A DNA stretch of 32,000 nt, taken from positions 1,320,001 through 1,352,000 of the forward strand of contig CP001848.1 of the NCBI GenBank assembly GCA_000025185.1, given 5' to 3'. Positions 8,413 to 27,579 of this stretch are shown here, piece by piece. How positions within the stretch are numbered: the first letter of the stretch is position 1; each line of letters starts with the position of its first letter. The notes under the pieces were generated by a model that saw only the letters and a program-made list of their open reading frames with translations, did no database searches and was not told the origin of the DNA. A program made the position numbers and the translations under genes. Source of the DNA: Pirellula staleyi DSM 6068. GTDB lineage: Bacteria > Planctomycetota > Planctomycetia > Pirellulales > Pirellulaceae.

Positions 8413-9315
8413 TTAGTAGTTAACCTTCAAGATGCGCCAAACCCAGATCGCTCCCACCACCTGCAACATAAAGGCGATGAAGAGGAGCCAGGGACCTTTG
8501 GGATTCTCGAGGAAAGCTCGGACATAATCGGGTTCGAGCCAGGTAAGGAAGGCCACCGCAATGATTCCGCCGAGCACCATGCCGAAGGCCGAAAGTCGGC
8601 TCCCCGAGGTGACCGCCATCAGGTGATTGCGAACATCCTGGCGATCGCGGGCCGAATGACTCATACGCTCGGTGAGGAGCGACAAGTTTCCACCGGCGCG
8701 GCGATGCACCACCACCGCTGTTGCGAAGACGCGAAACTCGGTCAGTGGCACGCGTGTCGCCATCCGATTCATCACCGAGACCGGGGCATGCCCCAGTTCG
8801 AGCTGCTGATGGGCGTAGGCAAACTCTTGACCAAGGGGCCCTTTGATTTCTTTCGAAACGAGCTGACAGGCTTCTGAAAGGGTTTGACCACTGCGCACCG
8901 CATCAGCTACCGCTTGCAGCGCTTGGGGCATCTGTTTTTGCATCGTGCCGACACGCCACCAGCGAAGCACGCTGAGGTAGACGATCGGCAAAGTGATGCC
9001 GAGGATCAGTCCCCCTGCAGCACCGAGCAGATTCTCGAACATCACCAGTGGAAGACCGAGACCGAGCACACCACCACCAATCACCACGGCGGTGGCGGTG
9101 GTCATGTCCATGAAGGTTCCCGATTCTTCGACAAGCCGGAAGAACCAGCGATTCAGATCACCCTCGGGCTGGGGCTCTGCGAGCTCGAGCCGAGGCCGAC
9201 TGGTGTCGGGCTTCGAAAAGAGGTCGCGCGCCAAGAGACCAATCGTGGCCAAGGCTGCCGAGACACTGGCAAACGTGGCCCCGACGATCGCTAGTTCTGC
9301 AAACATTCCATTCAT
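8413..9315 (-). CDS. tadB: Tad pilus inner-membrane platform protein TadB (T2SS-F domain)
   Basis: T2SSF domain (LQAVADAVRSGQTLSEACQLVSKEIKGPLGQEFAYAHQQLELGHAPVSVMNRMATRVPLTEFRVFATAVVVHRRAGGNLSLLTERMS) plus TM helices. Its start overlaps the cpaF stop by 4 nt (9312-9315). Confidence 0.9.
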   Translation of the reverse strand: MNGMFAELAIVGATFASVSAALATIGLLARDLFSKPDTSRPRLELAEPQPEGDLNRWFFRLVEESGTFMDMTTATAVVIGGGVLGLGLPLVMFENLLGAAGGLILGITLPIVYLSVLRWWRVGTMQKQMPQALQAVADAVRSGQTLSEACQLVSKEIKGPLGQEFAYAHQQLELGHAPVSVMNRMATRVPLTEFRVFATAVVVHRRAGGNLSLLTERMSHSARDRQDVRNHLMAVTSGSRLSAFGMVLGGIIAVAFLTWLEPDYVRAFLENPKGPWLLFIAFMLQVVGAIWVWRILKVNY

Positions 9316-10742
9316 GCCAGGTCCTCCTGCAGGAAGCGATTGCCGCTGGCAATGGCATCGATGTTACTGACCGGACCGGTGGCGATTTCGCCAGTGAGTG
9401 CGCGCTGCGTGAAGAGCTTGTCGGAGAGTTCGATTCCGACTTCCTTCAGCCGTTTCGCAAAGTTCGGCTTGATGCCGGTGGCATAGAAGTGACCGCGAGC
9501 AATGCCGCGATCATCGATGCCCGACTGCTGGAAGCCAAACAAGTCTTGAATAACGTAGTCGCCACTTTCGAGCGCTGTGATTTCCGAGATTCGCATCACC
9601 CGGCGCACACCCCCCTTGAGGCGCGACAGGTGCACTACCAGCGTCACCGCCGAAGCGATGTAGCGTCGCACCACGGGAACCGGCAGATCGAAGCCAGCCA
9701 TGCTGACCATCACTTCGAGTCGGCTGAGGGCGTCGCGCGTGTCGTTGGCGTGAATCGTCGACATCGAACCTTCGTGGCCCGTGTTCATCGCCTGGAGCAT
9801 ATCAAGCGCTTCACCACCACGAACTTCTCCCAGGATGATCCGGTCGGGACGCATGCGGAGGGCGTTGCGAACCAGGTCGCGCTGCGAAATTTCCGAAGCT
9901 CCTTCCGCGCTCTTCGGGCGCGTTTCGAGCTTCACCACATGCTTCCGCTGCAGCAAAAGTTCGGCCGAATCTTCGATCGTCACCAGTCGCTCGCCACCCG
10001 GAATGAAACGCGACAGGTTGTTCAGCATCGTGGTCTTACCGCTACCGGTACCACCGCTGATCATGATATTGATGCGACCTTCGATCGCCGCTTCGAGCAG
10101 CTCAAGCATCTCGGGACAAATGCTGCCGCGCGTCAGCAGATCGTTCACTTGCAAAGGTCGATGGCCGAATCGGCGAATCGACAACACCGGTCCACCGAGG
10201 GCCAGTGGTGGAATGATTGCGTTCACACGCGAGCCGTCGGGCAAGCGGGCATCGCACATCGGCGAGTGCTCGTCGATACGACGTCCGACCCGGGCCACAA
10301 CGCGCTGGATGATTTGCAGCAAATGCTCTTCATCGGCGAAAACGGTGTTCGTCTCTTGCAAACGCCCCAGACGTTCGACGTACACTTCGTGCGGGCCATT
10401 CACCAGGATATCGGTGACGTCGGGGTCCTGCATATAGACTTCGAGAGGACCCAGGCCGAACGATTCGGCAATCAGTTCCTCGACGAGGCGTTCTTCGTCG
10501 ATCGCAGGGAGCTTGCGGCTGCGGGTCCGGAGCATCGTCTCGGCCAGCCGGCGAATATCTTCGCGAAGTTCTTCGTCCGAGAGACCAGCCAAGCGCGACA
10601 GATCGAGCGAATCGAGCAGCTCGCGATGGATGCCCGTCTTCAGCCGTTGAAATTCCGATTCAACAGTCTCGCCATGCATCATTGCATCGGCTTGACCATT
10701 GCCGTTTTTCTCACCGGCTGGGCGGAATGATTGAAGGAACAT
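9312..10742 (-). CDS. cpaF: Tad pilus secretion ATPase CpaF/TadA (T2SS-E / VirB11-like)
   Basis: Walker A 'ISGGTGSGKTTMLN', 'LVTIEDSAEL', Walker B/His box 'RPDRIILGEVRGGEALDMLQAMNTGHEGSMSTIHAN', and a CpaF-type N-terminal domain. Confidence 0.95.
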   Translation of the reverse strand: MFLQSFRPAGEKNGNGQADAMMHGETVESEFQRLKTGIHRELLDSLDLSRLAGLSDEELREDIRRLAETMLRTRSRKLPAIDEERLVEELIAESFGLGPLEVYMQDPDVTDILVNGPHEVYVERLGRLQETNTVFADEEHLLQIIQRVVARVGRRIDEHSPMCDARLPDGSRVNAIIPPLALGGPVLSIRRFGHRPLQVNDLLTRGSICPEMLELLEAAIEGRINIMISGGTGSGKTTMLNNLSRFIPGGERLVTIEDSAELLLQRKHVVKLETRPKSAEGASEISQRDLVRNALRMRPDRIILGEVRGGEALDMLQAMNTGHEGSMSTIHANDTRDALSRLEVMVSMAGFDLPVPVVRRYIASAVTLVVHLSRLKGGVRRVMRISEITALESGDYVIQDLFGFQQSGIDDRGIARGHFYATGIKPNFAKRLKEVGIELSDKLFTQRALTGEIATGPVSNIDAIASGNRFLQEDLA

Positions 10743-12141: not shown

Positions 12142-13134
12142 CTACTGCACGTTGGCGGTCGAGATCGAGCGGGTGTTCTTCACGCCGCTGGGAACAGCGG
12201 TCGTTTCGGGGGTGCTCGAGGTGTTAGCGGGGGCCATGGGCTCGCCGCTGGCAGCCCGCGATTCACGCACGCGATCGTCGCTCATTTCCACGACGCTCAC
12301 ATTGCCGCCGCTCCACTTTTCCACCATGAACTTGCGTGGGGTCGGTGGCACAGGAACTTCCTTGAGGCCGAGCAGTTGGCGACGGGTGATGCTGTCGACC
12401 GTGTCGTCGGCTGGCGCTTCAGCGGCGCTGCAGAGCGAAACGCTCAGCACACCGGTCTTCTGGGCGACCATCAGCTTGTTGGCGTCGGCAGGGAGCACGG
12501 CGACAGTGATCGAGTCACCGGAGCGAGGCTGATCGCGACGCTTGTCGAGCACGATCGGATTGCCAGCAGCGGCGTCGACCACCATCACATCCTTCATCAG
12601 GGTGCGGGTGAGAACTTCGCCCAGGTCGGGGTGGGTCCCTTCGACCGTCATGCTGATGTCGACGAGATCACCTTCAGAGAGTCGCTTGCCACCCGCATCG
12701 ACGTTCATCGCTTCGATCGTCACGGCGCGATAGCCAGCAGGAATACGTTCGGCCAGTGGTGGCAAACCTTCGCCGATGCCGAGCAGGTACTCTTCACGCA
12801 TCACTTGACCGGCAGGAAGTGCCCGGTTGGTGATCCGGCCTTGAGCGGTCGCGGGACCTTTCATGATCGTTTCGAGCTTGGGGAACGTCTTGGGGACGAA
12901 CACCACCTCGACATCGTCGGCGGTCACCAGCGTGTGCTTGGGGAGGTTGTGCTTGGCAATCACGATCCGAATTCCTGGATCAGGAATCGGCGCGGGAGCG
13001 GGTGGAACCGGGGCGACCACTTTGGCGACGACCGGTGGTTTTTGCAGCGACTGACGCACGATGTAGGCGGCCACAAGGCCGAGCACAATCGCCATCACAC
13101 CAAAGGTGACGGTTGCGGGACTAATGCGTTTCAC
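12142..13134 (-). CDS. cpaB: Flp pilus assembly protein CpaB/RcpC (SAF + RcpC domains)
   Basis: N-terminal TM (VTFGVMAIVLGLVAAYIV), then a SAF-like segment (IVIAKHNLPKHTLVTADDVEVVFVP...ALPAGQVMREEYL) and an RcpC-like segment (IPAGYRAVTIEAMNVDAGGKRLSEGDLVDISMTV). Confidence 0.88.
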   Translation of the reverse strand: MKRISPATVTFGVMAIVLGLVAAYIVRQSLQKPPVVAKVVAPVPPAPAPIPDPGIRIVIAKHNLPKHTLVTADDVEVVFVPKTFPKLETIMKGPATAQGRITNRALPAGQVMREEYLLGIGEGLPPLAERIPAGYRAVTIEAMNVDAGGKRLSEGDLVDISMTVEGTHPDLGEVLTRTLMKDVMVVDAAAGNPIVLDKRRDQPRSGDSITVAVLPADANKLMVAQKTGVLSVSLCSAAEAPADDTVDSITRRQLLGLKEVPVPPTPRKFMVEKWSGGNVSVVEMSDDRVRESRAASGEPMAPANTSSTPETTAVPSGVKNTRSISTANVQ

Positions 13135-13216
13135 GAGAGCCTCTCCTCAAAACTGATGCAGCAAGTTGTTCAGAGTTGTTTCAAAAGTTGTTCAAAGGTG
13201 GGACGGAACTTGTTCA

Positions 13217-13720
13217 CTATTCTTTGAATGTTACGTACGTGGTTGACAATTCTTTGCCAGCGATCGAGATGCCAAAGAACGTAAGCAAATCTGGTGCCGC
13301 TTTATCCATCGGAACGTTCACTGTCACGCTAACCCTGGTGCCACTAGGAGCTGCGGCGAGCAGAGCACCGGTGGGATCAGCGGCGCCGTTCACAAAAAGC
13401 AACACTTCGCGGTTGTTTCGCCACGTGTAGCGGGCCAAAGCGGCGTCGATCGCCCCTTCGACACTCGCCCGGGTCGAGCTGGCTAGCGCTGCTTCGCGAG
13501 CGCCGTGATTCGTCGCGGCTGCGACCCCTTGGCTGTTCATCAGCAGGATGCCGAACTCGACAATCGCCAGCAGCAGCACGAGCAGGATCGGCAGCACCAT
13601 GATCAATTCGATCGAGAGTGCAGCGCCGAGGCGCGAGCGCTGGCGGCGCGCTGCGGGAGCGGCTGAGCGTGGGCTCGAGTTGTGCGAGGCTTTGTTCATG
13701 ATGTTCATTGTTTTTCTCAT
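13217..13720 (-). CDS. TadE-like pseudopilin
   Basis: TadE-type N-terminus 'SRLGAALSIELIMVLPILLVLLLAIVEFGILLMN'. The track ORF (to 14062) overlaps the peptidase gene in another frame. In-frame ATGs at 13720, 13708 and 13699 lie just after the peptidase stop (13738). Confidence 0.8.
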   Translation of the reverse strand: MRKTMNIMNKASHNSSPRSAAPAARRQRSRLGAALSIELIMVLPILLVLLLAIVEFGILLMNSQGVAAATNHGAREAALASSTRASVEGAIDAALARYTWRNNREVLLFVNGAADPTGALLAAAPSGTRVSVTVNVPMDKAAPDLLTFFGISIAGKELSTTYVTFKE

Positions 13721-14673: not shown

Positions 14674-14973
14674 CTAGTTATCAAAGCCCGAGGAGATACC
14701 TGGCACCGAAAAATCGCGGTCGCATTCGGAGAAGGTATGTCCGGGGTCGTCGTATTCGCTAGGGTCAATCAGTCCTGGAACGCCGGCGAACGAGTACGAC
14801 TGGTCAAACGCCAGGAGCGCTTGGGCCGTGTCGCCGAGTTCGTCGATGATCGCGTCGCGAGCACCAGCAATGCCACTCACGATTCCGATCACCAGCACCA
14901 CCACCAGGATGGTCCATTCGAACGTCAGGACGCCGTCGTCATCGGTCCAAACTTTTTTGAGCAGCTGTGTCAT
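14674..14973 (-). CDS. flp: Flp-family (type IVc) prepilin paralog a, 99 aa, with C-terminal extension
   Basis: MTQLLKKVWTDDDG|VLTFEWTILVVVLVIGIVSGIAGARDAIIDELGD... The Flp-type leader ends in Gly, the mature N-terminus has Glu at +5 and an aromatic at +6 (compare G|XXXXEY), then a hydrophobic helix. The ATG at 14973 is chosen by alignment with the paralogs. Confidence 0.85.
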   Translation of the reverse strand: MTQLLKKVWTDDDGVLTFEWTILVVVLVIGIVSGIAGARDAIIDELGDTAQALLAFDQSYSFAGVPGLIDPSEYDDPGHTFSECDRDFSVPGISSGFDN

Positions 14974-15075
14974 CGCGGTTCTTCTTTCGATCGAGCTACG
15001 TTGCGTTTCCACCTCATCGGCCTCACGTGTGTGGCCTCGGTGCATCACGCACCTGGGCAACCCACATTGGTCCGA

Positions 15076-15420
15076 CTAGCCCCCGTCGGTCGCATCTTCC
15101 ACAGATTCTGGATTCTGGCCGGGAAGGTTGGTTTCCTCATTGCGGGTGCAGTCGAGGTACAGGTTCACATCGTCAGTCGCTTCATCGAATTCACTCGCAG
15201 GCGATTCAAATACGCCCGTGATGGTGATTCCGGCGAGGCTGTAGCTTTGATCGAAGTTCACGGCAGCTTGGGCCACGTCGCCAAGTTCGTCGATAATGGC
15301 ATCTCGAGCACCTGCTAGTCCACCAACGATGCCGATCGTCAGCAGCGTCAGCAGCAAGGTCCACTCGAAGGAGAGAACGCCATCGTCTTCTCGCACCATT
15401 TGGCTCAGTAGCTTTTGCAT
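15076..15420 (-). CDS. flp: Flp-family prepilin paralog b, 114 aa, with C-terminal extension
   Basis: MQKLLSQMVREDDG|VLSFEWTLLLTLLTIGIVGGLAGARDAIIDELGDVAQAAVNFDQSY...LDCTRNEETNLPGQNPESVEDATDGG. Confidence 0.88.
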   Translation of the reverse strand: MQKLLSQMVREDDGVLSFEWTLLLTLLTIGIVGGLAGARDAIIDELGDVAQAAVNFDQSYSLAGITITGVFESPASEFDEATDDVNLYLDCTRNEETNLPGQNPESVEDATDGG

Positions 15421-15538
15421 GACACGAAACTCTTCTCTGTTTAGGAGGATAGGCCGTAAAACGTGAGCTTTACGGCAATTTTTCTTAAATCATGGAGCCC
15501 GGAGCGGAGAGGCTCCTGGCTGCATAGCCCGCATGGTT

Positions 15539-15570
15539 GTTGCGATTGTGCCACGTGGCATCATCGCAAC
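15539..15570. promoter_or_regulatory. 32-bp near-perfect palindrome in the predicted flp-b leader
   Basis: GTTGCGATTG-TGCCACGTGGCA-TCATCGCAAC. The outer arms GTTGCGAT/ATCGCAAC are perfect, as is the central 12-bp palindrome TGCCACGTGGCA. It lies between the candidate -24/-12 element (15601-15617) and the flp-b ATG (15420). Confidence 0.5.
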
Positions 15571-15600
15571 CGAGTCGCGGCTCGCTCTTCATGCGGTAAG

Positions 15601-15617
15601 AGCAAGCCGTGTACCAA
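15601..15617 (-). promoter_or_regulatory. Candidate sigma54 (-24/-12) promoter of flp-b
   Basis: Minus strand TTGGTACACGGCTTGCT versus consensus YTGGCACG-N4-TTGCW. GG and GC are at the correct 10-nt spacing, the -12 TTGC is perfect, and the -24 element has one mismatch. Confidence 0.5.
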
Positions 15618-15649
15618 TCGCTCGATCTCGCGGGGAGATCGCGGCGACA

Positions 15650-15997
15650 TTAGCCCCCGTCAATCGAGTCTTCCACGATCTGTGGCACTTGACCGGGGAG
15701 GTTCGTTTCGACGTTACGTGTGCAGTCGATGAAGAGGAACGCGTCTTCGAACGCCGAGTCACTAGCTGTACTGGTGGTGGCGGCGTGCACGATCACTTCC
15801 AGCGGGAAGTCGATGGTGTACGACTGGTCGACGGCGAGCATCGCTTCCGACACGTCACCGAGTTCGTCGATGATGGCGTCGCGAGCACCGGCCAGGCCGC
15901 TCACAATGCCGATCGTCAGCAGCGTGACGAGCATCACCCATTCGAACGACAGCACGCCGTCGTCTTCGGCCCAAATCGCTTGTACAAGCTTGTTCAT
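15650..15997 (-). CDS. flp: Flp-family prepilin paralog c, 115 aa, with C-terminal extension
   Basis: MNKLVQAIWAEDDG|VLSFEWVMLVTLLTIGIVSGLAGARDAIIDELGDVSEAMLAVDQSYTIDFPLEVIVHAATTSTASDSAF...IDCTRNVETNLPGQVPQIVEDSIDGG. Start at the ATG at 15997 by paralog alignment. Confidence 0.88.
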   Translation of the reverse strand: MNKLVQAIWAEDDGVLSFEWVMLVTLLTIGIVSGLAGARDAIIDELGDVSEAMLAVDQSYTIDFPLEVIVHAATTSTASDSAFEDAFLFIDCTRNVETNLPGQVPQIVEDSIDGG

Positions 15998-16141
15998 TGC
16001 AAAATCTTCCCGTGTGTGTGAAGTAATCGGTTGGTGTCCCATTTCCCGGATGGGTGGTGCCTCGTTGCACCCGTCGTTGCACATGCTGTGGCAGATTCCT
16101 TTGCCCCAGTCTTGGCAAGCTGCATTGCCCGTCGCCGCGCG

Positions 16142-16158
16142 AGCTGGCCTAGTGCCAC
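16142..16158 (-). promoter_or_regulatory. Candidate sigma54 (-24/-12) promoter of flp-c
   Basis: Minus strand GTGGCACTAGGCCAGCT. The -24 TGGCAC is perfect and GC is at the correct spacing, but the -12 element is weak (CAGC rather than TTGC). Confidence 0.4.
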
Positions 16159-16199
16159 TTCGCGACTGCGGACAAGGCAGTCTCGCACCGCAAAAATCG

Positions 16200-16532
16200 C
16201 TAGTTCGGACTGTTGCTGTTCACAACTTGCTGAGGAGCGCCGGTGGCACGTCCGCAGTCGCTGTAGACAATGTTGTCGGTGAATCCCGAGTCGCTGGCAG
16301 CGCCGGTCGAATCGCCATCGATCACAAATCCGAGGGGATAGTCGATCGTGTACGAATCGTCGAGGGCGAGCATCGCTTCGGCCGCATCACCAAGTTCGTC
16401 GATGATGGCGTCGCGAGCGGCAGCCACGCCGGTGACGATGCCAATCACCAGGACGGTGAGGAGGAGCGTCCATTCGTAGGCGAGCATGCCACTTTCGTCG
16501 TTCCACATCTGCTGGAGCAGTTGCTTGTGCAT
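16200..16532 (-). CDS. flp: Flp-family prepilin paralog d, 110 aa, with C-terminal extension
   Basis: MHKQLLQQMWNDESG|MLAYEWTLLLTVLVIGIVTGVAAARDAIIDELGDAAEAMLALDDSYTIDYPLGFVIDGDSTGAASDSGF...SDCGRA... Confidence 0.88.
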   Translation of the reverse strand: MHKQLLQQMWNDESGMLAYEWTLLLTVLVIGIVTGVAAARDAIIDELGDAAEAMLALDDSYTIDYPLGFVIDGDSTGAASDSGFTDNIVYSDCGRATGAPQQVVNSNSPN

Positions 16533-16700
16533 CGCTAGTTGATCTCGCTACGAAAAACCAAGGAATTCAGGCTGTTTTTGAGCTTCGGCGAGCGGGCTCG
16601 GGGCTCGAAAGCGACCAAGCCCACTCGTTGTGAAGCAGGGGTTCGGCGACGGTGAGATCGCCGAACAGCGTTTCAATTGCTGACCTAAGTCAGCTGACAA

Positions 16701-17048
16701 TTAGTTGCCACCGACCGAGTCGAGAACTGGCGAAGGAACCTGACCGGCTTGGTCAGCAGCGCTGTTACGTCCGCAATCGGTGAACGTGAAGGCGTCAACA
16801 AAGGCCGAGTCCGAAGCGGTGCTGGTCGTTGGAGCGTGAACGATAACTTCGAGAGGGAAGTCGATCGTGTACGATTGGTCGAGAGCCAACATGGCTTCTG
16901 CAACGTCGCCCAATTCGTCGATGATCGCATCACGGGCGCCAGCGAGGCCCGAAACGATGCCGATCGTGAGGAGGGTCACGAGGAGGACCCATTCGAAGGA
17001 AAGGACGCCGTCCTCTTCCTTCCACATACGTGCGAAACAATTCTTCAT
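16701..17048 (-). CDS. flp: Flp-family prepilin paralog e, 115 aa, with C-terminal extension
   Basis: MKNCFARMWKEEDG|VLSFEWVLLVTLLTIGIVSGLAGARDAIIDELGDVAEAMLALDQSYTIDFPLEVIVHAPTTSTASDSAF...TDCGRN... Start at the ATG at 17048 by paralog alignment. Confidence 0.88.
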   Translation of the reverse strand: MKNCFARMWKEEDGVLSFEWVLLVTLLTIGIVSGLAGARDAIIDELGDVAEAMLALDQSYTIDFPLEVIVHAPTTSTASDSAFVDAFTFTDCGRNSAADQAGQVPSPVLDSVGGN

Positions 17049-17162
17049 CCGAAACTCCTTGTACCTGATACCTGAAAACACGTGTGTGGTTTGGAGATAC
17101 AGTCTCCGCGCCACGCCGTCCCCCTTGTTGTGCCCAAAGAGACGGCTTTCGACGCACGCTCT

Positions 17163-17180
17163 ATGCAGGGGACGTGCCAA
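17163..17180 (-). promoter_or_regulatory. Candidate sigma54 (-24/-12) promoter of flp-e
   Basis: Minus strand TTGGCACGTCCCCTGCAT versus YTGGCACG-N4-TTGCW. The only mismatch is the first T of the -12 element. It lies about 117 nt upstream of the flp-e ATG. Confidence 0.6.
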
Positions 17181-17384
17181 GAGCAAGTATTTAACTGGAG
17201 ATTTCTGGGTGAGCGCTGGCTAAGTGTTGTGCGCCAATCACTTACAGCATTTTGGCGGCTGGCCCCAAGCTGGTTGCACTTCAGCAACCATGTTGCGAGC
17301 GCGAAACACGCGATGTTTAGCGCGTGAAGCAGAATGTAAGCATCGTGGTGCGCCAGGCCGGGGATGTTCAGCTCGCCAGGCGCG

Positions 17385-17428
17385 CAAAAAAGAGGCCCCC
17401 GAGCCGCACAAAACGACTCGGGAGCCTC
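17385..17428 (-). terminator. Strong intrinsic terminator about 400 nt downstream of flp-f
   Basis: Minus strand GAGGCTCCCGAG-(13-nt loop)-CTCGGGGGCCTC forms a 12-bp stem including one G-U pair, followed by TTTTTTGCGC. Confidence 0.7.
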
Positions 17429-17826
17429 TCGGAGTTTCGGACGCTTAGCGCAGCTTCGCGATCAGGCCTTCAGGTGGGCCTCGGCCACTCGTGGTGAGTC
17501 GCTCGGGGGGCACATCCCAAGCGGCTCGTAAGTGGCGATTTGCGCGGAAGTTAATCAAGTTCGATCAGGCTGTTTTCAGCAGCCGCTCGGCCGTGGCGGA
17601 GTGACCAGGGCCGAGCCTTCTCACAAGCTTCATCTGCAGGGTTATTTCGGGGGCACATCCGGCATAACCGCTACAGCTGTTTGTGGCCAGTCTCGGGCGT
17701 CAAGCGTAAGACTGGGAGTTTGTTCAATCGCCTTAGCCAAGTGGGGTGCGATGTTAATGTTCGCTTACCACCGCACGCTGCAGGCGATTACGGGGACGAT
17801 TCACTGTCCGCAATTACTGCCCGCAT

Positions 17827-18228
17827 TTACTGCGGGATGTTTTCGTCGACCACGCCGGGCTGATTCTGGTTCTGAGCCGAGCGAGGGAATTCGGTGATCT
17901 TCATGCCACCTTGGCGACGGGTGTCGGCGCGGCCGCAATCTTCGAACTGGGCAGCATCGACGAACTGCGAGCTGGCAGCGCCCGAAGGTCCGTAGTAGCC
18001 GTTGTTTCCGACGGTGTGGACCGTCACGCTGAGCGGTGGCTGGATGTAGTACGACTGATCGAGGGTGACCATCGCTTGGGCCACGTCACCCATTTCGTCG
18101 ATCACGCTATCTCGCACGGCGGCGAGACCGGCGACCGTGCCGATGGTGAGCAAGCTGGCGAGCATGGTCCATTCGAACGAGAGGACGCCGTCCTCTTCGT
18201 TCCACATTTGAGCGAGCAACTTCTGCAT
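17827..18228 (-). CDS. flp: Flp-family prepilin paralog f, 133 aa, with the longest C-terminal extension
   Basis: MQKLLAQMWNEEDG|VLSFEWTMLASLLTIGTVAGLAAVRDSVIDEMGDVAQAMVTLDQSYYIQPPLSVTVHTVGNNGYYGPSGAASSQF...EDCGRADTRRQGG... Start at the ATG at 18228 by paralog alignment. Confidence 0.85.
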   Translation of the reverse strand: MQKLLAQMWNEEDGVLSFEWTMLASLLTIGTVAGLAAVRDSVIDEMGDVAQAMVTLDQSYYIQPPLSVTVHTVGNNGYYGPSGAASSQFVDAAQFEDCGRADTRRQGGMKITEFPRSAQNQNQPGVVDENIPQ

Positions 18229-18370
18229 GGCGAAACTCCTGGTTTCATGTGCCGAGGGAACCGTTAAGGGAAAGCGAGAACACCTCGCCACCCCAGCCGA
18301 GCCATGAACATCGAGATTCTCTAGTCTTCCCAAATGTTCAATCGGCTTAACCGGCATGTTCACTACGATT

Positions 18371-18387
18371 GGCACAATCCGTACCAA
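18371..18387 (-). promoter_or_regulatory. Candidate sigma54 (-24/-12) promoter of flp-f
   Basis: Minus strand TTGGTACGGATTGTGCC. The -24 TGGTACG is the same variant as flp-b, and GC is at the correct spacing. It lies about 144 nt upstream of the ATG. Confidence 0.45.
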
Positions 18388-18720
18388 ATGCAAGTTCGGC
18401 GCTCCACTTTTTTGACAGAATGTTCAGAAAAGCTTGCCACGTTTCAGTTTAGAAACAAACGGCGGTGTTAAGCAGTCGGATCACGACAGCTGGGCGATGT
18501 TAAGCAGATTGAACACTCGGAGCCAAGCAGCTTGACAGAATGTCAAGAGAACTGAACATCGCACCTTACGCAGCTTGCCGAGCGAGGTGATTTGCTAAGA
18601 GGCTTGAGCAAAATGCTTCAAGGGAGAATCGCAGCGCGTTAAGAAAATGAAGGCTAAGCCCGCTTAATGCCCCGCAGGTGGGGCCAGCAAGGCTCGCAGC
18701 GGCTGTGACTGGGCCTATCG

Positions 18721-18750
18721 CGCAAAAAAGAAGGGAGCCGAAAGCTCCCT
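18721..18750 (-). terminator. Intrinsic terminator after the 550-aa membrane-protein gene
   Basis: Minus strand AAGGGAGC-tttcg-GCTCCCTT (8-bp perfect stem) followed by CTTTTTTGC. It lies 50 nt after the stop at 18800. Confidence 0.75.
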
Positions 18751-18799
18751 TAGGTGGATCAGAATCGATGGGCCCCAGGCGGGGCCCGATGCGTGTGGA

Positions 18800-20452
18800 T
18801 TAGCCGGCTGCTGTGGCCGCAGGCGCCGCCTTGGCCGGGAGCTCGATCAGGATCAGACGCTGATCGTGGTAGAGAATCCGCCCCCGCCCTTCGCGATCGG
18901 CCAGCAGAACTTCGCGGGCCAATTGGGGGTAGGAGTTTTTCGAGACCGCCAGGTACTTCATGTCGCGCCCTCGGGCGACGGCGAGCCAGTTCTTATCCCC
19001 GCGGAAGATCGTTTGGTAGTCGTTCCAGACATCGGGGCTGACGAGGTGGACATGGGTGGCGACGAGCGGACGGAGCTTTTCGTCCGAACGCATCAGGAGG
19101 TAGTCCCCCCAGTCCATCGGCGCGGCGATGTTCCCTTGCAGGTTCATCCGCACCACTTCGTCGGCCAGATAGACCGGAGTGTCGGTGACGGTGCTTCGCG
19201 CTTCGCCGCGTGGGGCACCTCGCAGCAAACTGCTGCTCGGTGGAGAGACGAGGAGCGTGACAAAGACAATTGCCATCGCATAGACGGTGCGCATCGCCAC
19301 CGGCTGATCGTCGGTGGCGGTGGTTTCGGGGGTGGTGGCACGCGAGCGGCTGAAAATGGCCGACAGATGTGGGACGACGGCAAAGGGCCACACGAGCGCC
19401 CACCAGGCGAGCATGCGAATGGCCATGACGGTGGCCAAAGCAAACAGGGCGAGGAGGAGGATTTCGTACCAGGCGATGGGGCGTGGTGTTTTGAAGCTGA
19501 CAGCCACCGCGACCACAGCGCTAGAGACCAGCAGGAAGCAGGTGAGGCTTTTGAGCGGAAGGCGTTGCCATTCGGAGATCGACTGTAGCGCGCTCGACTC
19601 GCCAAAGAAAATCACGTGGGGCCAGATCATCGGGCCGTGCGGTCCGATGGAAGCGAAGGCAACGAACAAGAGCGCGGCAATCCAAAGGGGCGCAACACCG
19701 CTGGCTTTGGCAGCAGCGGCGAGGTTCCAGCCATTTTTGGCGAGCTCTTGCAGCGTGTAGCCCAGGGCAATAGCGCCGAGCATGACGAGCCCCATCAGCA
19801 TGCTGCCATGCAGGTTTGCCCAGCAGATGGAGACGATCGGCAGCCAGAAGAGTGGATGCTTTTTGCCCGCCATCAGCTGCGCTGCTGCCAGGAGCACGAG
19901 CGCCGCGCCGAGCTGCCCAAACAGCTGGGGGCGAATCGTGCCGACGATCGGCAGGTTGAGTGTCATCACTACCAGCGGAACGACCCACAGGAGTTTCGAC
20001 TCGGGATCGCGCGCTCGCACCGCCAGCACCATCACCAGCGCCGTGAGTGTGACGAGAAGCGCATGGGCCAGGATGAGTCCTTCGTTGCCGAGCGTTTGAT
20101 GCGTGACGTAAGCGAGCAGCTGCGAGAGCCACGCGCTTTGCAGCACTGGTGTTGCCGAGGGGTGCGCGACAATTGGATCAAACGGGGGAAGAGCGCCGTG
20201 ATCAACGATCCAGCGACCAAAGTTCACATGCGCCCAGAGATCGGTGTGGTTGAGCCGGTTGAGACTCGTCACAAAGAAGACGATCGCGAGTGATGCGACC
20301 ACGGCGAGCGTGCTTTGGCGGATGCTTGGAAAGTAGGGACTGGTGAGCCGATCGCGCGTGATGCACTCCGGGAGCGCATCGGTGGCAGCGGTGTCGGTCG
20401 TTGTCCGCTCGAGTCGTGTGACGGTTGTGGCCATGGCATCCACCTTCTTCAA
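18800..20452 (-). CDS. Polytopic inner-membrane protein with a C-terminal extracytoplasmic domain; possibly a GT-C-like glycosyltransferase (functional call is weak)
   Basis: At least 10 hydrophobic helices. The first periplasmic-loop motif 'NHTDLWAHVNFGRWIVDHGALPPFDP' is reminiscent of the Asp-containing first loops of GT-C enzymes. The soluble tail of about 150 aa includes YLADEVVRMNLQGNIAAPMDWGDYL... Alternative start at 20434. Confidence 0.8.
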   Translation of the reverse strand: MKKVDAMATTVTRLERTTTDTAATDALPECITRDRLTSPYFPSIRQSTLAVVASLAIVFFVTSLNRLNHTDLWAHVNFGRWIVDHGALPPFDPIVAHPSATPVLQSAWLSQLLAYVTHQTLGNEGLILAHALLVTLTALVMVLAVRARDPESKLLWVVPLVVMTLNLPIVGTIRPQLFGQLGAALVLLAAAQLMAGKKHPLFWLPIVSICWANLHGSMLMGLVMLGAIALGYTLQELAKNGWNLAAAAKASGVAPLWIAALLFVAFASIGPHGPMIWPHVIFFGESSALQSISEWQRLPLKSLTCFLLVSSAVVAVAVSFKTPRPIAWYEILLLALFALATVMAIRMLAWWALVWPFAVVPHLSAIFSRSRATTPETTATDDQPVAMRTVYAMAIVFVTLLVSPPSSSLLRGAPRGEARSTVTDTPVYLADEVVRMNLQGNIAAPMDWGDYLLMRSDEKLRPLVATHVHLVSPDVWNDYQTIFRGDKNWLAVARGRDMKYLAVSKNSYPQLAREVLLADREGRGRILYHDQRLILIELPAKAAPAATAAG

Positions 20453-20492: not shown

Positions 20493-21731
20493 TTAGTTCG
20501 TGGTGGCTGCAGCGGGTGCAGAATCAGCCGCTTTTCCCTGGGAATCACGCGCTTTTTGACCCGCAGCGCCAAAGCGCCAAGCATCGTAGGGAGTCGTGCT
20601 GCGCCACAAGCACAAAGCGCGGGCCGCGTGGCTGTAGGGACCGTAGTGATCGACAATCGCTTTGTCGTCGAGCTCGGTGAGAGTGCGACAAAGCCACTGA
20701 CCCGCGCGCACAATCGTCTCTTGCGGAGGCTGAACTTCCGGCGGTGCATAGGCCAGCCATTCAATCTGGTGACCAGTCACCAGGATCTTGTCGTAGACCG
20801 TCGACTTCGTATCGACATCCGACGATTGACCAGTCGACCAGCTGCGCGACCAGAAGCCATCGCGCGACTGGGTTTGCTCGAGCAGGAGCGAAACCCGTTT
20901 CATATAAACGAGCATCTTCATCCGCTGCTTAGGGGTGAGCTTCTGCAGGTCGTCGTCGATACGGCAGAGGACCGTCATCGCCTCGAGCCGATGCAGGCCA
21001 TTACATGGACCATGTTCCGGCGGCGCTTTCACTAGTTCATCGATCAGCAGATCGAGCGTGATCGTCTCGCCAAACTTGTTGCTCCACATCGGCTGTGGAA
21101 AGACGTAGCGGGCATAGGTGATCGCCGTCCACTCGTACTCGAGCCGGTCGAGATGAAAGCGGCGGAGCGAGGTGGCGAGCAAATCGTTGATGGTGGCTTT
21201 ATCATCGCGCAGCGCGAGTGGATAGTCGCGCGCGAGTCCCGATTCGGCATACGTGGCGAGCAAGTCGTCGTTGTGATAGCTCGACGTATCGCGCGAGTTG
21301 GTCCCATCTTCAAATCCGCGAATCGTGATCCCTTCGCTCGTGCGCTGCAGCAGCGGAGGGGCGTTTTCTCCAACAATTTCGCGGAATTTTGCATCGTCGG
21401 TCAAATAGCCGAGCATCTGCTTGCCGCTGAGAACCTTGGGGTCGAAGAAGTCGGCGTCGGTTCCCCATAAGCGGAGCGAGTGGATCAAATTGTTCGTCAG
21501 CGGCGCAGTGCGCGGCGGCTTCACCCGGTCGAGAACATCAGAGAGTTGCTCGTCGGTTGCGACGCGCGGATCGTTGTAGCGCGGCAGCACCGAGTGGGGC
21601 GCTAGCGACTCGGGCAAGATCATCGGCGCGGGGGTGCTGCGACCTGTCGCTAAGGAGTAAACCAGTAGCGCGATCGCAATCACGGCCGGTGGAACAGTCC
21701 ATCGCGAAAGTGTGGGAAGTGGCGACGTCAT
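20493..21731 (-). CDS. Hypothetical protein with an N-terminal membrane anchor
   Basis: 412 aa with an N-terminal TM (WTVPPAVIAIALLVYSLATG) and a large soluble domain of no family I recognise. Its ATG overlaps the upstream EBP stop in a TAATG junction at 21729-21733, sharing one nucleotide (21731). Confidence 0.8.
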   Translation of the reverse strand: MTSPLPTLSRWTVPPAVIAIALLVYSLATGRSTPAPMILPESLAPHSVLPRYNDPRVATDEQLSDVLDRVKPPRTAPLTNNLIHSLRLWGTDADFFDPKVLSGKQMLGYLTDDAKFREIVGENAPPLLQRTSEGITIRGFEDGTNSRDTSSYHNDDLLATYAESGLARDYPLALRDDKATINDLLATSLRRFHLDRLEYEWTAITYARYVFPQPMWSNKFGETITLDLLIDELVKAPPEHGPCNGLHRLEAMTVLCRIDDDLQKLTPKQRMKMLVYMKRVSLLLEQTQSRDGFWSRSWSTGQSSDVDTKSTVYDKILVTGHQIEWLAYAPPEVQPPQETIVRAGQWLCRTLTELDDKAIVDHYGPYSHAARALCLWRSTTPYDAWRFGAAGQKARDSQGKAADSAPAAATTN

Positions 21732-23341
21732 TAGAGGAGCCCAAACTTTTTCATCTTGTTGTAAAGCGTGACGCGACTGATCCCGAGCTCCGCTGCGGTC
21801 TCTTTACGACGGAAGTTATTGCGCTGCAGCGAATCCTCGATGATCCGCCGCTCGAGCACGTCGACACGTGCTTCCAGCGAGTTGGTTTGCATCCGCAGCG
21901 CTGGTGCAGCAGCTGGTGGTGGATTGGCGATGCCAGTTTCGGTCGCCGTGGCCATTGGATGAGTGTGCGTCATCGAACTGGCATGCCCGTGCGACGAACT
22001 TGGCATGCTGCTGCGCGCCATGGTGTTTGGCGAGCCGACCCGAATGCGAGCACCCATGCCGGCGGGCAGCATGCCAGGTTGGAGTTGCCGATCGTCGTGC
22101 AGCGTCATGTTGTGCATGGTGGGCTGGTTTGGCTCGTTCTCGTTGTGCGACTGATTGGCAGCCGCCACGCGAATGGAGCTCGGCAGATCCCCGACGGTGA
22201 GCATGCCACGATGACAGTACAGCACGGCGCGGCGCACCACGTTTTCCATCTCACGAACGTTGCCAGGCCAGTGATAGGCACGCAAGGTTTCGAGGAACGC
22301 AGGCTCGATCAGCCGCAGCGGAATGTTGTGGGTGCGGCTATGTTCGAGCGCGAACTTACGAGCCAGGTATTCGATATCCCAAGGTCGCTCGCGCAGCGGG
22401 AGCAAGCGGAAGTTGAGGATGTTCAGACGATAGTACAAGTCGGTTCGAAAATTGCCGCTGCGAACCAGTTCCTCGAGGTTGTAGTTCGAGGCAACCACCA
22501 GCCGCGCTTGCGAGTACTGCGTTTCGTTACTCCCGACCGGCTCGTATTCGCCCGTCTCGATCACCCGCAGCAGCTTGGCTTGTTGTTCGAGCGGGAGGAC
22601 GTCGATTTCGTCGAGCAGCAGTGTGCCCCGACCAGCTGCGGCAAACTTTCCTTCGCGGTCGCGATCGGCGCCGGTGAAGGCCCCTTTCACGTAGCCAAAC
22701 AGTTCGCTTTCAATCAGATCGGGTGGCAGAGCGCCGCAGGCGACGGTGCAAAACCGTTCCTCGCGACGATCGGAGAGTTCGTGAATCAAGCGGGCGAGAA
22801 AGGTCTTGCCGCTCCCCGTTTCGCCAATCAAAAGGACGGTCACATTGTGGCGCGCCGCCACTTTGATCTCGTCCATCGTGTCGAACATTTCCGGAGTGAA
22901 CGTGACGAGCGATCGGCTGCGGCCGTGGAGTTCCTTATGCGGCATCTCGCTCCAGAAACCAGCGAGTTCCCCTTCGAGATCCTGGCGGTCGGACAAGAGG
23001 CGTCGGAGTCGACCAAAGTCGAGTGGAAACTCGAGGACATCGTCGATCGTTTTATCAGCCAGCTTACGGAGTCGAGGTGGGCAGTCCTGATCGACGAGGC
23101 CGTATAGCGGCGCGTTATCGATCGCTTCGTCGAGTTCGGCGATGAAGCGCGCGGGGGAATAGCCGTTGAGGGTGGTGCGGTCGAGATGCACGAGCACAGC
23201 ACTGATGGTCTGCGTTTTGAGCAGCTCAGGTAAAGATTCGAGAGCATCGCAGGGGACGATCAGTTGCTTGCCTTCGAGCTGCGTGCCGAGTTCGAAAAGC
23301 AAATTCTGATCGCGCGTGAAGACGAGGATGCTGTTGGACAT
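21731..23341 (-). CDS. Sigma54-dependent transcriptional activator (bacterial enhancer-binding protein): receiver-like N-domain + AAA+ + Fis-type HTH
   Basis: Walker A 'GETGSGKTFLARLIH', the sigma54-contact loop 'GAFTGA' (ESELFGYVKGAFTGADRD), Walker B 'LLLDEID', 'WPGNVREMENVV', and a C-terminal HTH 'ETAAELGISRVTLYNKMKKFGL'. The ATG at 23341 (MSNSILVF...) is preferred over the track start at 23371. Confidence 0.93.
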   Translation of the reverse strand: MSNSILVFTRDQNLLFELGTQLEGKQLIVPCDALESLPELLKTQTISAVLVHLDRTTLNGYSPARFIAELDEAIDNAPLYGLVDQDCPPRLRKLADKTIDDVLEFPLDFGRLRRLLSDRQDLEGELAGFWSEMPHKELHGRSRSLVTFTPEMFDTMDEIKVAARHNVTVLLIGETGSGKTFLARLIHELSDRREERFCTVACGALPPDLIESELFGYVKGAFTGADRDREGKFAAAGRGTLLLDEIDVLPLEQQAKLLRVIETGEYEPVGSNETQYSQARLVVASNYNLEELVRSGNFRTDLYYRLNILNFRLLPLRERPWDIEYLARKFALEHSRTHNIPLRLIEPAFLETLRAYHWPGNVREMENVVRRAVLYCHRGMLTVGDLPSSIRVAAANQSHNENEPNQPTMHNMTLHDDRQLQPGMLPAGMGARIRVGSPNTMARSSMPSSSHGHASSMTHTHPMATATETGIANPPPAAAPALRMQTNSLEARVDVLERRIIEDSLQRNNFRRKETAAELGISRVTLYNKMKKFGLL

Positions 23342-24544: not shown

Positions 24545-25474
24545 TTAAGGGCTTAGCCAGCGGAAGAAGTTGCGGACCGGTTGTCCGTCGACATAGGCGG
24601 TCGGCTGACCATAGAGGCCACTTCCGAGCGAGACTCCACCACGGCTCACTGGTGGACGAGCGGTCGCTGCTGTGGTTCCGCGACCCGTAGTGGGCAACGT
24701 TCCATAAACACCTGTTTGAGGGTAGGCAACCACCACCGGCCCTGTTGGAGCCACATAACTGCTCGGCGCTACGTAGCTAGGTGTTACATAACTAGGCGCG
24801 GCATAGTTATAAGTAGGTGCCCCAAACGTTGGGTTCATAGGAACCGTGTAGTCGACGATGCGCGGTGGCATGGTGTTGATCGAGGGGGAATTGAGTGGAG
24901 CCGAATAGATCGGCTCGCTATAGCTGGGGCCTTGCACCACGGTGCCTGGACGAGAAGTCGCTGGGCTATACGAGGGATTGTAAGGTGCGGTCGTTGCCGA
25001 TGGAGGTGGAAAAACACCTTGTGCCGACGAGGGCTCGAGGAGTGAGGGGCGGACGTCGGCGGGCGAGAGTCGCTCGCCAGGCTGAATGGGAGTGATAGGG
25101 TACTGCACTTGCGAGGGAGCGAGGCAGGCAGACTGCGATGCGGCGTATTCATCGGACGACATCAGCGGCTGGCGAGCGGTGTCGTGCGTCGGTGGCAGCA
25201 TCGTCGCAGCGCTTGGACGAGCAACGATCACACCTTTGTGGCCAATGTCGTTCGGGGCTGAGTCGGTGATTGGGCGCAGGTTCGCTGCTGGGGCAAACAC
25301 CTCGGGCCGAGGGAGGTCGGTGATCTCGGGATAAGGGCTATCGGCGGCGATATCGCTGGCAATCAGAATGACCGGATCGACAGCAGGGTTGGTTGTCGAT
25401 TGGCCAGCAGCGGTCATGGAGAATGACACGGTCGCCAGCATCGTGAGCGTGAGCACTGAAAGCTTCTGGGGCAT
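24545..25474 (-). CDS. Secreted Pro/Ser/Tyr-rich low-complexity protein
   Basis: Signal peptide MPQKLSVLTLTMLATVSFSMTAAG. Long P/S/T/Y-rich sequence with short repeats (APTYNYAAPSYVTPSYVAPSSYVAPTGP). No family recognised. Confidence 0.65.
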   Translation of the reverse strand: MPQKLSVLTLTMLATVSFSMTAAGQSTTNPAVDPVILIASDIAADSPYPEITDLPRPEVFAPAANLRPITDSAPNDIGHKGVIVARPSAATMLPPTHDTARQPLMSSDEYAASQSACLAPSQVQYPITPIQPGERLSPADVRPSLLEPSSAQGVFPPPSATTAPYNPSYSPATSRPGTVVQGPSYSEPIYSAPLNSPSINTMPPRIVDYTVPMNPTFGAPTYNYAAPSYVTPSYVAPSSYVAPTGPVVVAYPQTGVYGTLPTTGRGTTAATARPPVSRGGVSLGSGLYGQPTAYVDGQPVRNFFRWLSP

Positions 25475-25789: not shown

Positions 25790-26578
25790 CTAGCGCGGGA
25801 GTGTCAGCGTGAATTGGCACCCGGTGGGAGCGAGGTTCTCGGCCGCAATGGCTCCCCCATGCAGCTCGGCAATGCGCCAGGTTTTCGAGAGACCGAGTCC
25901 AAGTCCGCGCCCCGCTTCGCGCCCGCTATAGAACGGGTCGTAAAGATGCTCGCGGGCTTCTTCCGAAAGGCCCGGCCCGGTATCGCGCACCACGATCGCA
26001 ATGGTCTTGCTTGCGACGCACAGCTGCAGCGTGACTGCTCCTTGATGAGCCACCGCTTCGAGCGCGTTGCGGAGCATCGCTTGCACCCCCATTTTCAGAT
26101 GCACAGGGTCGGCTGAAATGGCGACCTGCTCGGCTGTTTCGTCGCCAGGGGGAACAAGCGTGAGCGAGGTTTGCTGGGCCGCAGCTTCGCTTTGAAACTG
26201 GTCGACCAGTTCGCGAAGGAGCGAGAAAACGAGCACCGTTTCGCGGTTCAGCCGAGGTGGCTTGGCGAACAGCATAACGTCGGCCAGCATCTCGTGTGCG
26301 CGAAAGGCCTGGGCCACAATCACGGCGAGTCGCCGCTTGCGATCGGGGTGGGGCTCGTCGGCCAGCAGGGTTTGGGCCCGGGTGGCGATGTTCGCCAGCG
26401 GGTTGTTGATTTCGTGACTCAGGCCATAGGCAAACGCGTGCAAACTGGCGAGTTTTTGCTGCTCGAGCAGCTTGGGAAGTTCCGCCGCCAATCGCTTGCG
26501 CGCAAGGGGATCGTCGACCAGCTTGAGAAGCTCATCGAGGGAGGTGGTGGTCGAACTGGTGGGGGCTGGGTCAGGCAT
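25790..26578 (-). CDS. Histidine kinase, soluble, without a recognisable sensor or TM domain (HisKA + HATPase_c only)
   Basis: H-box 'FAYGLSHEINNPLANIATRAQ', N-box 'MLRNALEAV', G1 'VRDTGPGLSEE', G2 'GRGLGLGLSKTWRIAELHGG'. The track start at 26581 is TTG and the adjacent ATG at 26578 is used. Confidence 0.9.
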   Translation of the reverse strand: MPDPAPTSSTTTSLDELLKLVDDPLARKRLAAELPKLLEQQKLASLHAFAYGLSHEINNPLANIATRAQTLLADEPHPDRKRRLAVIVAQAFRAHEMLADVMLFAKPPRLNRETVLVFSLLRELVDQFQSEAAAQQTSLTLVPPGDETAEQVAISADPVHLKMGVQAMLRNALEAVAHQGAVTLQLCVASKTIAIVVRDTGPGLSEEAREHLYDPFYSGREAGRGLGLGLSKTWRIAELHGGAIAAENLAPTGCQFTLTLPR

Positions 26579-26600
26579 CAAGCTGCGCCGCTGCAGGCAC

Positions 26601-27336: not shown

Positions 27337-27579
27337 AACGACGAACCATCCTTCCTTCCCGATGGTTGGACCAGCAGCTTTTGGAGACAGCACCGTGGAC
27401 ACATGCCCACAAGTGGTGCAGCCTCAACCCTCCGTGGGATGCCACGTCGATGCTGGACCTAAACTCCCTCGACAGAACAATTCTACGCGAGGTGCGCAGA
27501 CCGCATACCTTGCGATCCTGCCCGTATCCGGCAAAAAGGTCAGGTCTTTCCTGAATTGCCAATCTTGCCAGTCGTGGTG

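Follow-up and report, generated by a model that had tools for sequence, protein, structure and literature searches.

How are the genes of a planctomycete Flp pilin array switched on? Planctomycetes alternate between swimming and attached stages and bear abundant pili, and to our knowledge the control of their pilus genes is essentially unstudied. The question is raised by a 32,000-nucleotide (nt) stretch of Pirellula staleyi DSM 6068 DNA, referred to below as the window, in which six paralogous genes encoding Flp-like pilins (flp-f to flp-a) adjoin genes of the cpa/tad type. Psta_1087 and the flp-e product are 100% identical, and Psta_1085 corresponds to flp-c. A sequence-only reading of the window had proposed sigma-54-type -24/-12 elements upstream of four of the six genes, together with an enhancer-binding protein (EBP) encoded just upstream. 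Comparison with related loci made this proposal much stronger for flp-f, flp-e and flp-b and spoke against it for flp-c. We consider it likely that the elements at 18371-18387, 17164-17180 and 15601-15617, all on the minus strand, are sigma-54 (RpoN) -24/-12 promoters of the Tad/Flp locus that are activated by an EBP.

Sigma-54-type elements upstream of the pilin genes

The four candidate elements are the following:

18371..18387, minus strand: putative flp-f promoter TTGGTACGGATTGTGCC, with GG at 18385-18384 and GC at 18373-18372
17164..17180, minus strand: putative flp-e promoter TTGGCACGTCCCCTGCA, with GG at 17178-17177 and GC at 17166-17165
15601..15617, minus strand: putative flp-b promoter TTGGTACACGGCTTGCT, internal to the array, 32 nt past the flp-c stop codon
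16142..16158, minus strand: claimed flp-c element GTGGCACTAGGCCAGCT, unsupported as a promoter

All four strings were found on the minus strand where they had been placed, with the pattern TGGYAC-N7-GC at 15602-15616, 16143-16157, 17165-17179 and 18372-18386. Their distances to the ATG codons supported by homology are 180 (flp-b), 144 (flp-c), 115 (flp-e) and 142 nt (flp-f), close to the 117-182 nt given before. Counted over both strands of the window, the pattern occurs 6 times against 2.45 expected from shuffled sequence, and 6 of 100 shuffles reached 6; the empirical rate of about one per 26 kb per strand agrees with the earlier 15-bit estimate of about one per 33 kb per strand. Four of the six matches lie in pilin-upstream DNA on the pilin strand, and the other two (8746 and 19336) lie on the plus strand within coding sequence.

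A ranking of the whole window on both strands was then made with a generic sigma-54 matrix, modelled on the published consensus YTGGCACGrNNNTTGCW with approximate weights, and with a clade matrix trained without the window. The scores were as follows:

flp-e: generic matrix 17.4 bits, rank 1; clade matrix 17.9 bits
flp-b: generic matrix 16.6 bits, rank 2; clade matrix 15.0 bits
flp-f: generic matrix 11.8 bits, rank 5; clade matrix 23.6 bits, the best in the window
flp-c: generic matrix 9.5 bits, rank 15; clade matrix -2.8 bits

With the generic matrix 27 window sites exceeded 8 bits. At 11.7 bits or more, three of the five window matches fell in the 1.5 kb of sense-strand pilin-upstream DNA, where 0.047 would be expected (Poisson P = 1.7e-5), and with the clade matrix the flp-f, flp-e and flp-b elements were the top three of the window. 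These three match the form expected of a sigma-54 promoter, GG and GC exactly 10 nt apart within TGGCAC-N5-TTGC. The flp-c element has GG and GC at the canonical spacing as well, as had been claimed for all four, but it lacks the T at -14. The core of the earlier proposal holds for flp-f, flp-e and flp-b; for flp-c alone, chance suffices. No site was found in the upstream regions of flp-a and flp-d (best scores -2.9 and 0.1 bits, respectively), which had been described as having no comparable element. The six upstream regions could not otherwise be aligned, and the matches were therefore not inherited through recent duplication, which we ruled out as their source.

For comparison we scanned one genome per species, which gave 74 Pirellulales loci and, with the window, 223 pilin homologues. 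Matches of at least 10 bits to the generic matrix were distributed as follows, the sense-strand pilin-upstream DNA amounting to 56 kb:

Sense-strand pilin-upstream DNA: 100 matches, 1.78 per kb
Antisense strand of the same DNA: 6 matches, 0.11 per kb
All locus DNA: 0.184 per kb
Other non-coding-like DNA: 0.085 per kb

When the threshold was raised to at least 14 bits over 1.03 Mb, 30 of 54 matches lay in sense upstream of pilin genes, and 7 more preceded cpaB or the A24 peptidase gene; the tad strand carried 52 of the 54. The distance from site to ATG showed a sharp peak at 110-120 nt. A site precedes 82 of the 111 first or solo pilin genes (74%) versus 10 of the 110 inner genes (9%), an inner gene being one that closely follows another pilin gene. 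The sites are thus in sense orientation and conserved at orthologous genes. The low frequency of sites at inner genes also fits the suggestion that flp-a and flp-d are co-transcribed with flp-b and flp-e.

The logo of 78 non-redundant sites reads tYGGYAYG-N5-TGCAww. Conservation is limited to the positions required by sigma-54 (GG, C/T-A-C/T and TGC), with fixed spacing and variable spacers. T at -14 is present in 75 of the 78 sites, a feature that the generic matrix did not impose. At the two positions past the end of the matrix, downstream of the -12 GC, A or T prevails (65 and 66 of the 78 sites), again without selection by the matrix. These data suggest that the flp-f, flp-e and flp-b elements are very probably genuine sigma-54 -24/-12 promoters.

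The three sites differ in how they are conserved. The flp-f element is invariant, spacer included, in 11 orthologous promoters. It is a near-palindrome, TTGGTAC-N5-GTGCCAA (18369-18388), that also scores 8.4-10 bits on the opposite strand, and the AATAAT that follows it is kept in all orthologues. The conservation of the spacer and of AATAAT is more constraint than sigma-54 alone should impose. Transcription from this element would start near 18360 and give a leader of about 132 nt. Orthologues of the flp-e element read yGGCAYG-N5-TGCW and lie 111-118 nt ahead of the ATG; the predicted flp-e start is near 17153, with a leader of about 105 nt. For flp-b, which is among the few inner genes with a site of their own, the predicted start is near 15590 and the leader about 170 nt long, and in two related loci (L012 and L015) flp-b-like genes carry a site at the corresponding position.

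The flp-c element was not borne out as a promoter. In addition to its low scores, it reads AGC where 75 of the 78 related sites read TGC, and A at -14 was found in none of the 78. In a second partial match nearby, at 16075-16095, GC replaces the invariant GG, and the alignment of the flp-c upstream region with flp-e-type promoters was ambiguous. Psta_1085 is 144 aa long in the public record, from an ATG at 16084, but the alignment to the other five pilins favours the ATG at 15997 (115 aa), and the apparent flp-c upstream region therefore changes in length. The element may be a decayed copy or a chance match, and a function as a promoter is not supported, or would be weak at most. In our reading flp-c shares the transcript of flp-d, or else has no more than a weak or decayed promoter of its own.

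Candidate activator, enhancer-like palindromes and transcription units

Initiation by sigma-54 calls for an activator, and a candidate gene heads a group of three upstream of the pilin array:

23341..21731, minus strand: sigma-54 EBP gene, whose product (21731..23341) combines a receiver-like fold with a GAFTGA-bearing AAA+ domain and a Fis-type helix-turn-helix (HTH)
21731..20493, minus strand: gene of a 412-aa protein (hyp412)
20452..18800, minus strand: gene of a 550-aa polytopic membrane protein (memb550)

The EBP matched PF00158 (E = 1.8e-59), AAA_lid_14 and HTH_8 (E = 1.1e-12), and the GAFTGA motif is readable in its sequence, so that it has the AAA+ sigma-54 interaction domain, GAFTGA and HTH of a bacterial EBP, in agreement with the GAFTGA EBP read before from the letters. 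Its gene has the same orientation as the pilin genes and lies 3.5 kb upstream of flp-f rather than the 3.3 kb given earlier. GAFTGA and the HTH are invariant in 45 orthologues. Residues 1-120 are predicted to form a (beta-alpha)5 receiver fold (block-mean predicted local distance difference test score, pLDDT, 85-93), and a Foldseek search with the model returned NtrC1, NtrC4, FleQ (8p53), LuxO and VpsR (7v2b). No Response_reg or other receiver profile matched the N-terminal domain, and the protein scored below every NCBIfam equivalog cut-off. Asp54, at the phospho-acceptor position, is not conserved among the 45 orthologues and is replaced by E, Q, G, S, H or T in orthologues, and the conserved phospho-acceptor Asp and cognate kinase of a two-component regulator of the NtrC/PilR type were not found. 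These features mark the N-terminal domain as a pseudo-receiver, as in FleQ and VpsR. Because this receiver has no conserved phospho-acceptor, the EBP is probably switched by a signal other than a histidine kinase.

One two-component pair is encoded upstream of the EBP region:

27402..26749, minus strand: HTH_17-receiver regulator
26581..25790, minus strand: 263-aa kinase without a sensor domain

We rejected this pair (26749-27402 and 25790-26581) as a partner of the EBP because other loci do not keep it in synteny with the EBP.

In 11 related loci the module of EBP, hyp412 and memb550 genes lies upstream of the pilin genes, and in 1 more it is inverted; strong sites were found at the first pilin genes of each of the 12. 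Anatilimnocola sp. NA78 encodes an EBP orthologue (71% identity) 1.2 Mb from its tad array, not beside the tad genes, and its pilin promoters share the same architecture. No sites were found upstream of the EBP, hyp412 and memb550 genes. The earlier proposal that the neighbouring EBP is the activator is therefore plausible: it is supported by synteny in 12 loci, all with sites, and weakened by the absence of the gene from most of the flanks. Because of that absence and the distant Anatilimnocola orthologue, the assignment of EBP to promoters is an inference from association. The EBP at 21731-23341 is our candidate activator for these promoters.

An activator of this kind would bind upstream of the promoter. 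Three short motifs, namely palindromes of the form TGWWCA-N3-TGWWCA, GCGCTAAG and GCTTAACAT, were strongly enriched in the DNA 40-220 nt ahead of the sites. In 44 kb of other non-coding-like DNA the palindrome and GCGCTAAG were absent and GCTTAACAT occurred once; for the palindrome class this amounts to 12 occurrences upstream of promoters versus 0. In the window the corresponding sequences are:

18532..18559, minus strand: flp-f distal enhancer-like block ATGTTCAG-N5-TTGACA-TTC-TGTCAA, about -199 to -172 from the predicted start
18412..18426, minus strand: flp-f proximal palindrome TGAACATTCTGTCAA, about -66 to -52, in a conserved alignment block
17284..17370, minus strand: flp-e upstream half-sites, TGAACAT at 17364-17370 and TAAACATCGCGTGTTTCG...CAACATGGTTG at 17284-17319

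In promoters of the flp-f type the distal block reads ATGTTCAG-N5-CTGAACA-N3-TGTTCA and is kept in 11 orthologous promoters. The halves of its palindrome co-vary between species (TGAACA/TGTTCA, TTGACA/TGTCAA, TTTACA/TGTAAA). Conserved blocks in these promoter regions extend from about -190 to +35, and the remaining leader is free to vary. The flp-e half-sites recur upstream of flp-e-type promoters in other loci, and their k-mers are enriched. Taken together, a GAFTGA EBP and conserved palindromes 50-220 bp upstream of the promoters are both present, and the EBP is predicted to bind these palindromes.

Two terminators help to divide the array:

18731..18751, minus strand: intrinsic terminator after the EBP-hyp412-memb550 operon, a 9-pair stem followed by a T-run
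17384..17431, minus strand: strong terminator hairpin with a U6 tail (-48.4 kcal/mol, z = -6.6)

The first makes flp-f a separate transcription unit. The second sits between flp-f and the flp-e enhancer region, and in two related loci (L025 and L005) flp-e-type upstream regions come after similar T-run terminators. About 400 nt (17432-17826, minus strand) separate the flp-f stop codon from this terminator and may be a long 3' untranslated region or an unannotated feature. A scan of 14400-18900 with the sigma-70 consensus found no promoter, a result of little weight given that sigma-70 promoters have yet to be defined in planctomycetes. From these features we infer three units: flp-f alone, with terminators on both sides; flp-e, followed by flp-d and probably flp-c; and a unit from an internal booster promoter at flp-b, followed by flp-a and probably by the peptidase and TadE genes.

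A fourth promoter, for cpaB-cpaF-tadBC, probably lies in the TadE-like gene:

13284..13300, minus strand: candidate cpaB-cpaF-tadBC sigma-54 promoter GCGGCACCAGATTTGCT, in the 3' end of the TadE-like gene, 149 nt before cpaB

Of 34 cpaB upstream regions, 17 contain a match of 10 bits or more, for the most part about 113-116 nt from cpaB, and an element of the GCGGCACCAGATTTGCT type is conserved in at least 10 loci. In the window it overlaps the last TadE-like codons, which encode AAPDLL. In ten loci no change occurs at the synonymous positions that the motif requires (the third base of both GCG and GCA, and the use of TTG instead of CTG for Leu), whereas those in the spacer are free, and this constraint points to a promoter embedded in coding sequence. 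Four TGAACAA-type repeats (about 13165-13222) lie between the element and cpaB.

Proposed mechanism and competing explanations

Based on these data, we propose the following mechanism. The RNA polymerase holoenzyme with sigma-54 would bind each -24/-12 element as a closed complex, which would not initiate until the AAA+ EBP hydrolyses ATP and remodels it. The EBP would be bound at the TGWWCA-N3-TGWWCA or AACAT-type palindromes about 50-220 bp upstream. The protein encoded at 21731-23341 is the most likely activator, and its signal would be of a non-kinase kind, as for FleQ or VpsR. In this way flp-f, the flp-e operon, a boost at flp-b and the assembly operon would each be controlled separately.

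Several points weigh against this proposal. What was observed is the presence, rank and conservation of the motif, its bias in strand and position, the synteny and the domains of the EBP; sigma-54 dependence, the transcription starts, the acting EBP and its signal are all inferred from sequence. The generic matrix was modelled on a published consensus and is approximate, and the clade matrix was built from matches to it and is partly circular, though trained without the window. The window contains no rpoN gene. No obvious upstream palindrome of the same type was seen at the flp-b promoter. The flp-f element, nearly palindromic and conserved even in its spacer, may be bound by another factor too. 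Finally, the EBP gene was found in the flanks of only 11 of the 48 related loci with at least 6 kb of upstream sequence.

The last point bears most on the strongest alternative, that the elements are real sigma-54 promoters activated by another EBP encoded elsewhere, while the neighbouring EBP controls other genes, such as those of its own operon. Numerous EBPs are encoded by planctomycetes (supplement of PMC12316311), the Anatilimnocola orthologue is not linked to the tad genes, and binding of the EBP to these promoters is predicted. The EBP-linked loci argue the other way, since every one of the 12 has strong sites at its first pilin gene. The same clade shows both an invariant HTH and conserved enhancer-like motifs, the EBP orthologue is retained where the promoter architecture is retained, as in Anatilimnocola, and the genes of the EBP, hyp412 and memb550 have no sites of their own. 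We therefore regard activation by a different EBP as unlikely, though it deserves more weight than any other alternative.

The proposal that these elements are sigma-54 promoters must also be weighed against the reading that they are sites of a dimeric regulator of the sigma-70 type, or RNA-level elements, whose likeness to -24/-12 promoters is coincidental. The flp-f element gives this reading its material: it is nearly palindromic, it scores on the opposite strand, and its spacer and 3' flank (GCCAATAAT) show conservation that sigma-54 would not require. Across the 78 sites, however, only sigma-54 positions are conserved, at fixed spacing and with variable spacers, and sense matches outnumber antisense ones by 100:6. 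The terminators just upstream make it unlikely that the elements lie inside longer transcripts, and a GAFTGA EBP is syntenic with them. We judge this reading improbable. That all four elements are functionless chance matches in GC-rich intergenic DNA is more improbable still: although the pattern was chosen after the sequence had been viewed, its window-wide excess is modest and chance is sufficient for flp-c alone, the other three are top-ranked in the window, show the location bias given above and are conserved at orthologous positions in many species, by which chance is already refuted for flp-f, flp-e and flp-b.

The leader RNA, the wider locus and related systems

The leader of the flp-e mRNA contains a further conserved element:

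17109..17151, minus strand: flp-e mRNA leader hairpin with the invariant 9-nt loop GGGCACAAC

Its stem of 8-12 bp covaries and is followed by a conserved CCACACGTGTTTTC box and then by the ribosome-binding site. Because RNAalifold on the MAFFT alignment of the leaders mis-registered the stem, it was replaced by loop-anchored folding and explicit pair counts. All 12 copies examined in this way fold alike, with different stem sequences. Compensatory changes were seen in 6 of 10 pairs, and 80% of the cells were paired versus 30-53% when the partners were slid. A covariance model found 23 copies at E < 0.02, one per locus and all on the pilin strand; these are the window, L012:8035-8077, L013:4880-4921, L004:7862-7903 and copies in 19 other loci. 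Ten of the 11 new matches were compared with pilin starts, and each precedes such a start by about 55-65 nt. A search of 14400-18900 against Rfam gave only sub-threshold noise and no match to the hairpin. These data suggest that the hairpin, which is specific to mRNAs of the flp-e type, is a candidate for a new cis-regulatory RNA.

The remaining genes of the locus, all on the minus strand, are arranged as follows:

18228..14674: six paralogous Flp-like pilin genes in the order f, e, d, c, b, a
17827-18228: flp-f
16701-17048: flp-e
16200-16532: flp-d
15650-15997: flp-c
15076-15420: flp-b
14674-14973: flp-a
Downstream of the pilin array: A24 prepilin peptidase gene, then TadE-like gene
13134..12142: CpaB gene
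10742..9312: CpaF gene
After CpaF: TadB and TadC genes

The A24 peptidase, TadE, CpaB, CpaF, TadB and TadC genes adjoin the pilin genes in the same order in more than 30 related loci. In the alignment of the six pilins the N-terminus reads G14/VLSFEW, with invariant G, E and W, the W standing in place of the Y of the Flp motif G/XXXXEY. The Glu at +5 that is typical of Flp pilins is present, and a hydrophobic helix follows VLSFEW. A helix is predicted over residues 15-59; homologue models gave a block-mean pLDDT of 88-95 for residues 21-50 and low confidence for the C-terminal half. The pilins are 99-133 aa long and have a C-terminal extension without counterpart in typical, shorter Flp pilins. 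Searches of Pfam, NCBIfam and PDB profiles gave no match to Flp_Fap or to a solved Flp pilin. Homologues carry the name 'Flp pilus assembly pilin Flp' in JGI and UniRef. Membership in the Flp family is thus based on the N-terminal motif, the predicted helix, the genomic context and source annotations, not on profile matches.

The C-terminal tails of the pilins are rich in Ser and Thr, and one homologue of memb550, whose gene is co-operonic with the EBP gene in about 12 loci, is named 'Glycosyltransferase RgtA/B/C/D-like' in UniRef; pilin glycosylation via memb550 is a possibility. Divergent from the EBP gene, at 23628-24305 on the plus strand, is a gene for a small His/Tyr-rich protein (C-terminal part ...CYEPHFGCYDGDRHMHRYPAFHGTYYRRAYNYRNYFDYPWH...), which matched no family and whose gene accompanies that of the EBP in about 10 loci. 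A further sigma-54-like site, ATGGCATAGCTGTTGCG (25563-25579, minus strand; 13.2-13.4 bits), lies 88 nt upstream of the open reading frame 25474..24545, whose product is rich in Pro, Ser and Tyr, starts with a signal-peptide-like segment and matched no family; this gene was not found near the EBP in other loci. Other strong sigma-54-like sites occur in tad loci of relatives (L004:16089-16105, L001:10999-11015, L012:11045-11061, L015:3606-3622 and L008:4605-4621), the L004 site, downstream of tadB/C, scoring 20 bits. The sequence TTGGCCTGGATGTTGCT, with a close variant in L008, recurs at or near the 3' end of the peptidase gene and has no equivalent among the best window matches.

A broader picture can be drawn tentatively, and we hold it as possible but more doubtful than the promoter assignment itself: the Pirellulaceae would have a multi-promoter sigma-54 regulon for the whole Tad locus (pilins, assembly operon and sometimes the peptidase), driven by an orphan, non-phosphorylatable EBP with FleQ/VpsR-like sensing of a second messenger or partner protein, and the GGGCACAAC hairpin would add post-transcriptional control.

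Control of type IVa pilins by sigma-54 and PilR is classical in Pseudomonas, Myxococcus and Geobacter. As in the PilS-PilR systems, a major pilin gene in Pirellula would be transcribed from a -24/-12 promoter with an NtrC-family EBP bound upstream, although on the Pirellula side this is predicted. Unlike them, Pirellula has Flp (type IVc) pilins, no PilS-like kinase and a degenerate receiver in the EBP. In this last respect the EBP resembles FleQ and VpsR, which share a receiver-like fold, AAA+ and HTH domains and a non-conserved phospho-acceptor Asp; Foldseek aligned them over about 400 columns, with 24-32% identity over the aligned columns. VpsR acts with sigma-70, whereas FleQ controls flagella and exopolysaccharide genes and binds cyclic di-GMP.

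The sequence-only reading knew of no sigma-54 control for Flp arrays, and this has to be corrected. In Desulfovibrio vulgaris Hildenborough, the sigma-54 response regulator DVU2114 has its binding site ahead of the Flp-type pilin genes DORF39640-DVU2116, beside cpa/tad (Rajeev et al. 2011, PMC3333781; Kazakov et al. 2015, PMC4641369; PMC3944678). As in Pirellula, the gene of a GAFTGA sigma-54 EBP adjoins a locus of the cpa/tad type, the targets are Flp-type pilin genes at the head of the locus, and an EBP binding motif upstream of these genes, predicted in the case of Pirellula, is kept in related species. DVU2114 is a classical two-component response regulator, whereas the Pirellula EBP has neither a conserved phospho-acceptor nor a conserved kinase neighbour. 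Pirellula further differs in its phylum, in the several promoters within a six-gene array and in the probable intragenic cpaB promoter.

An in silico sigma-54 regulon of Pirellula sp. strain 1 was reportedly described by Studholme and Dixon in 2004. More recently, sigma-54 regulons were predicted in Planctomycetia in a 2025 study that does not mention Flp or Tad (PMC12316311). It resembles the present case in the phylum and in that sigma-54 promoters were predicted near EBP genes and for cell-exterior functions. RpoN appears in its supplement for P. limnophila, R. baltica and Pirellula sp. SH-Sr6A. According to Leary (1998), as cited in PMC3906078, rpoN from planctomycetes functions at canonical promoters, and the P. 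limnophilus gene complements Salmonella.

Our results offer a promoter map for the culturable type strain P. staleyi DSM 6068, together with a candidate activator with an unusual pseudo-receiver, a conserved enhancer motif and a leader RNA element of the main pilin operon. They do not describe a new type of system. Rather, the sigma-54 control of Flp/Tad pilins that has so far been documented in Desulfovibrio would recur in a distant phylum, which lends support to the idea that sigma-54 controls the cell exterior.

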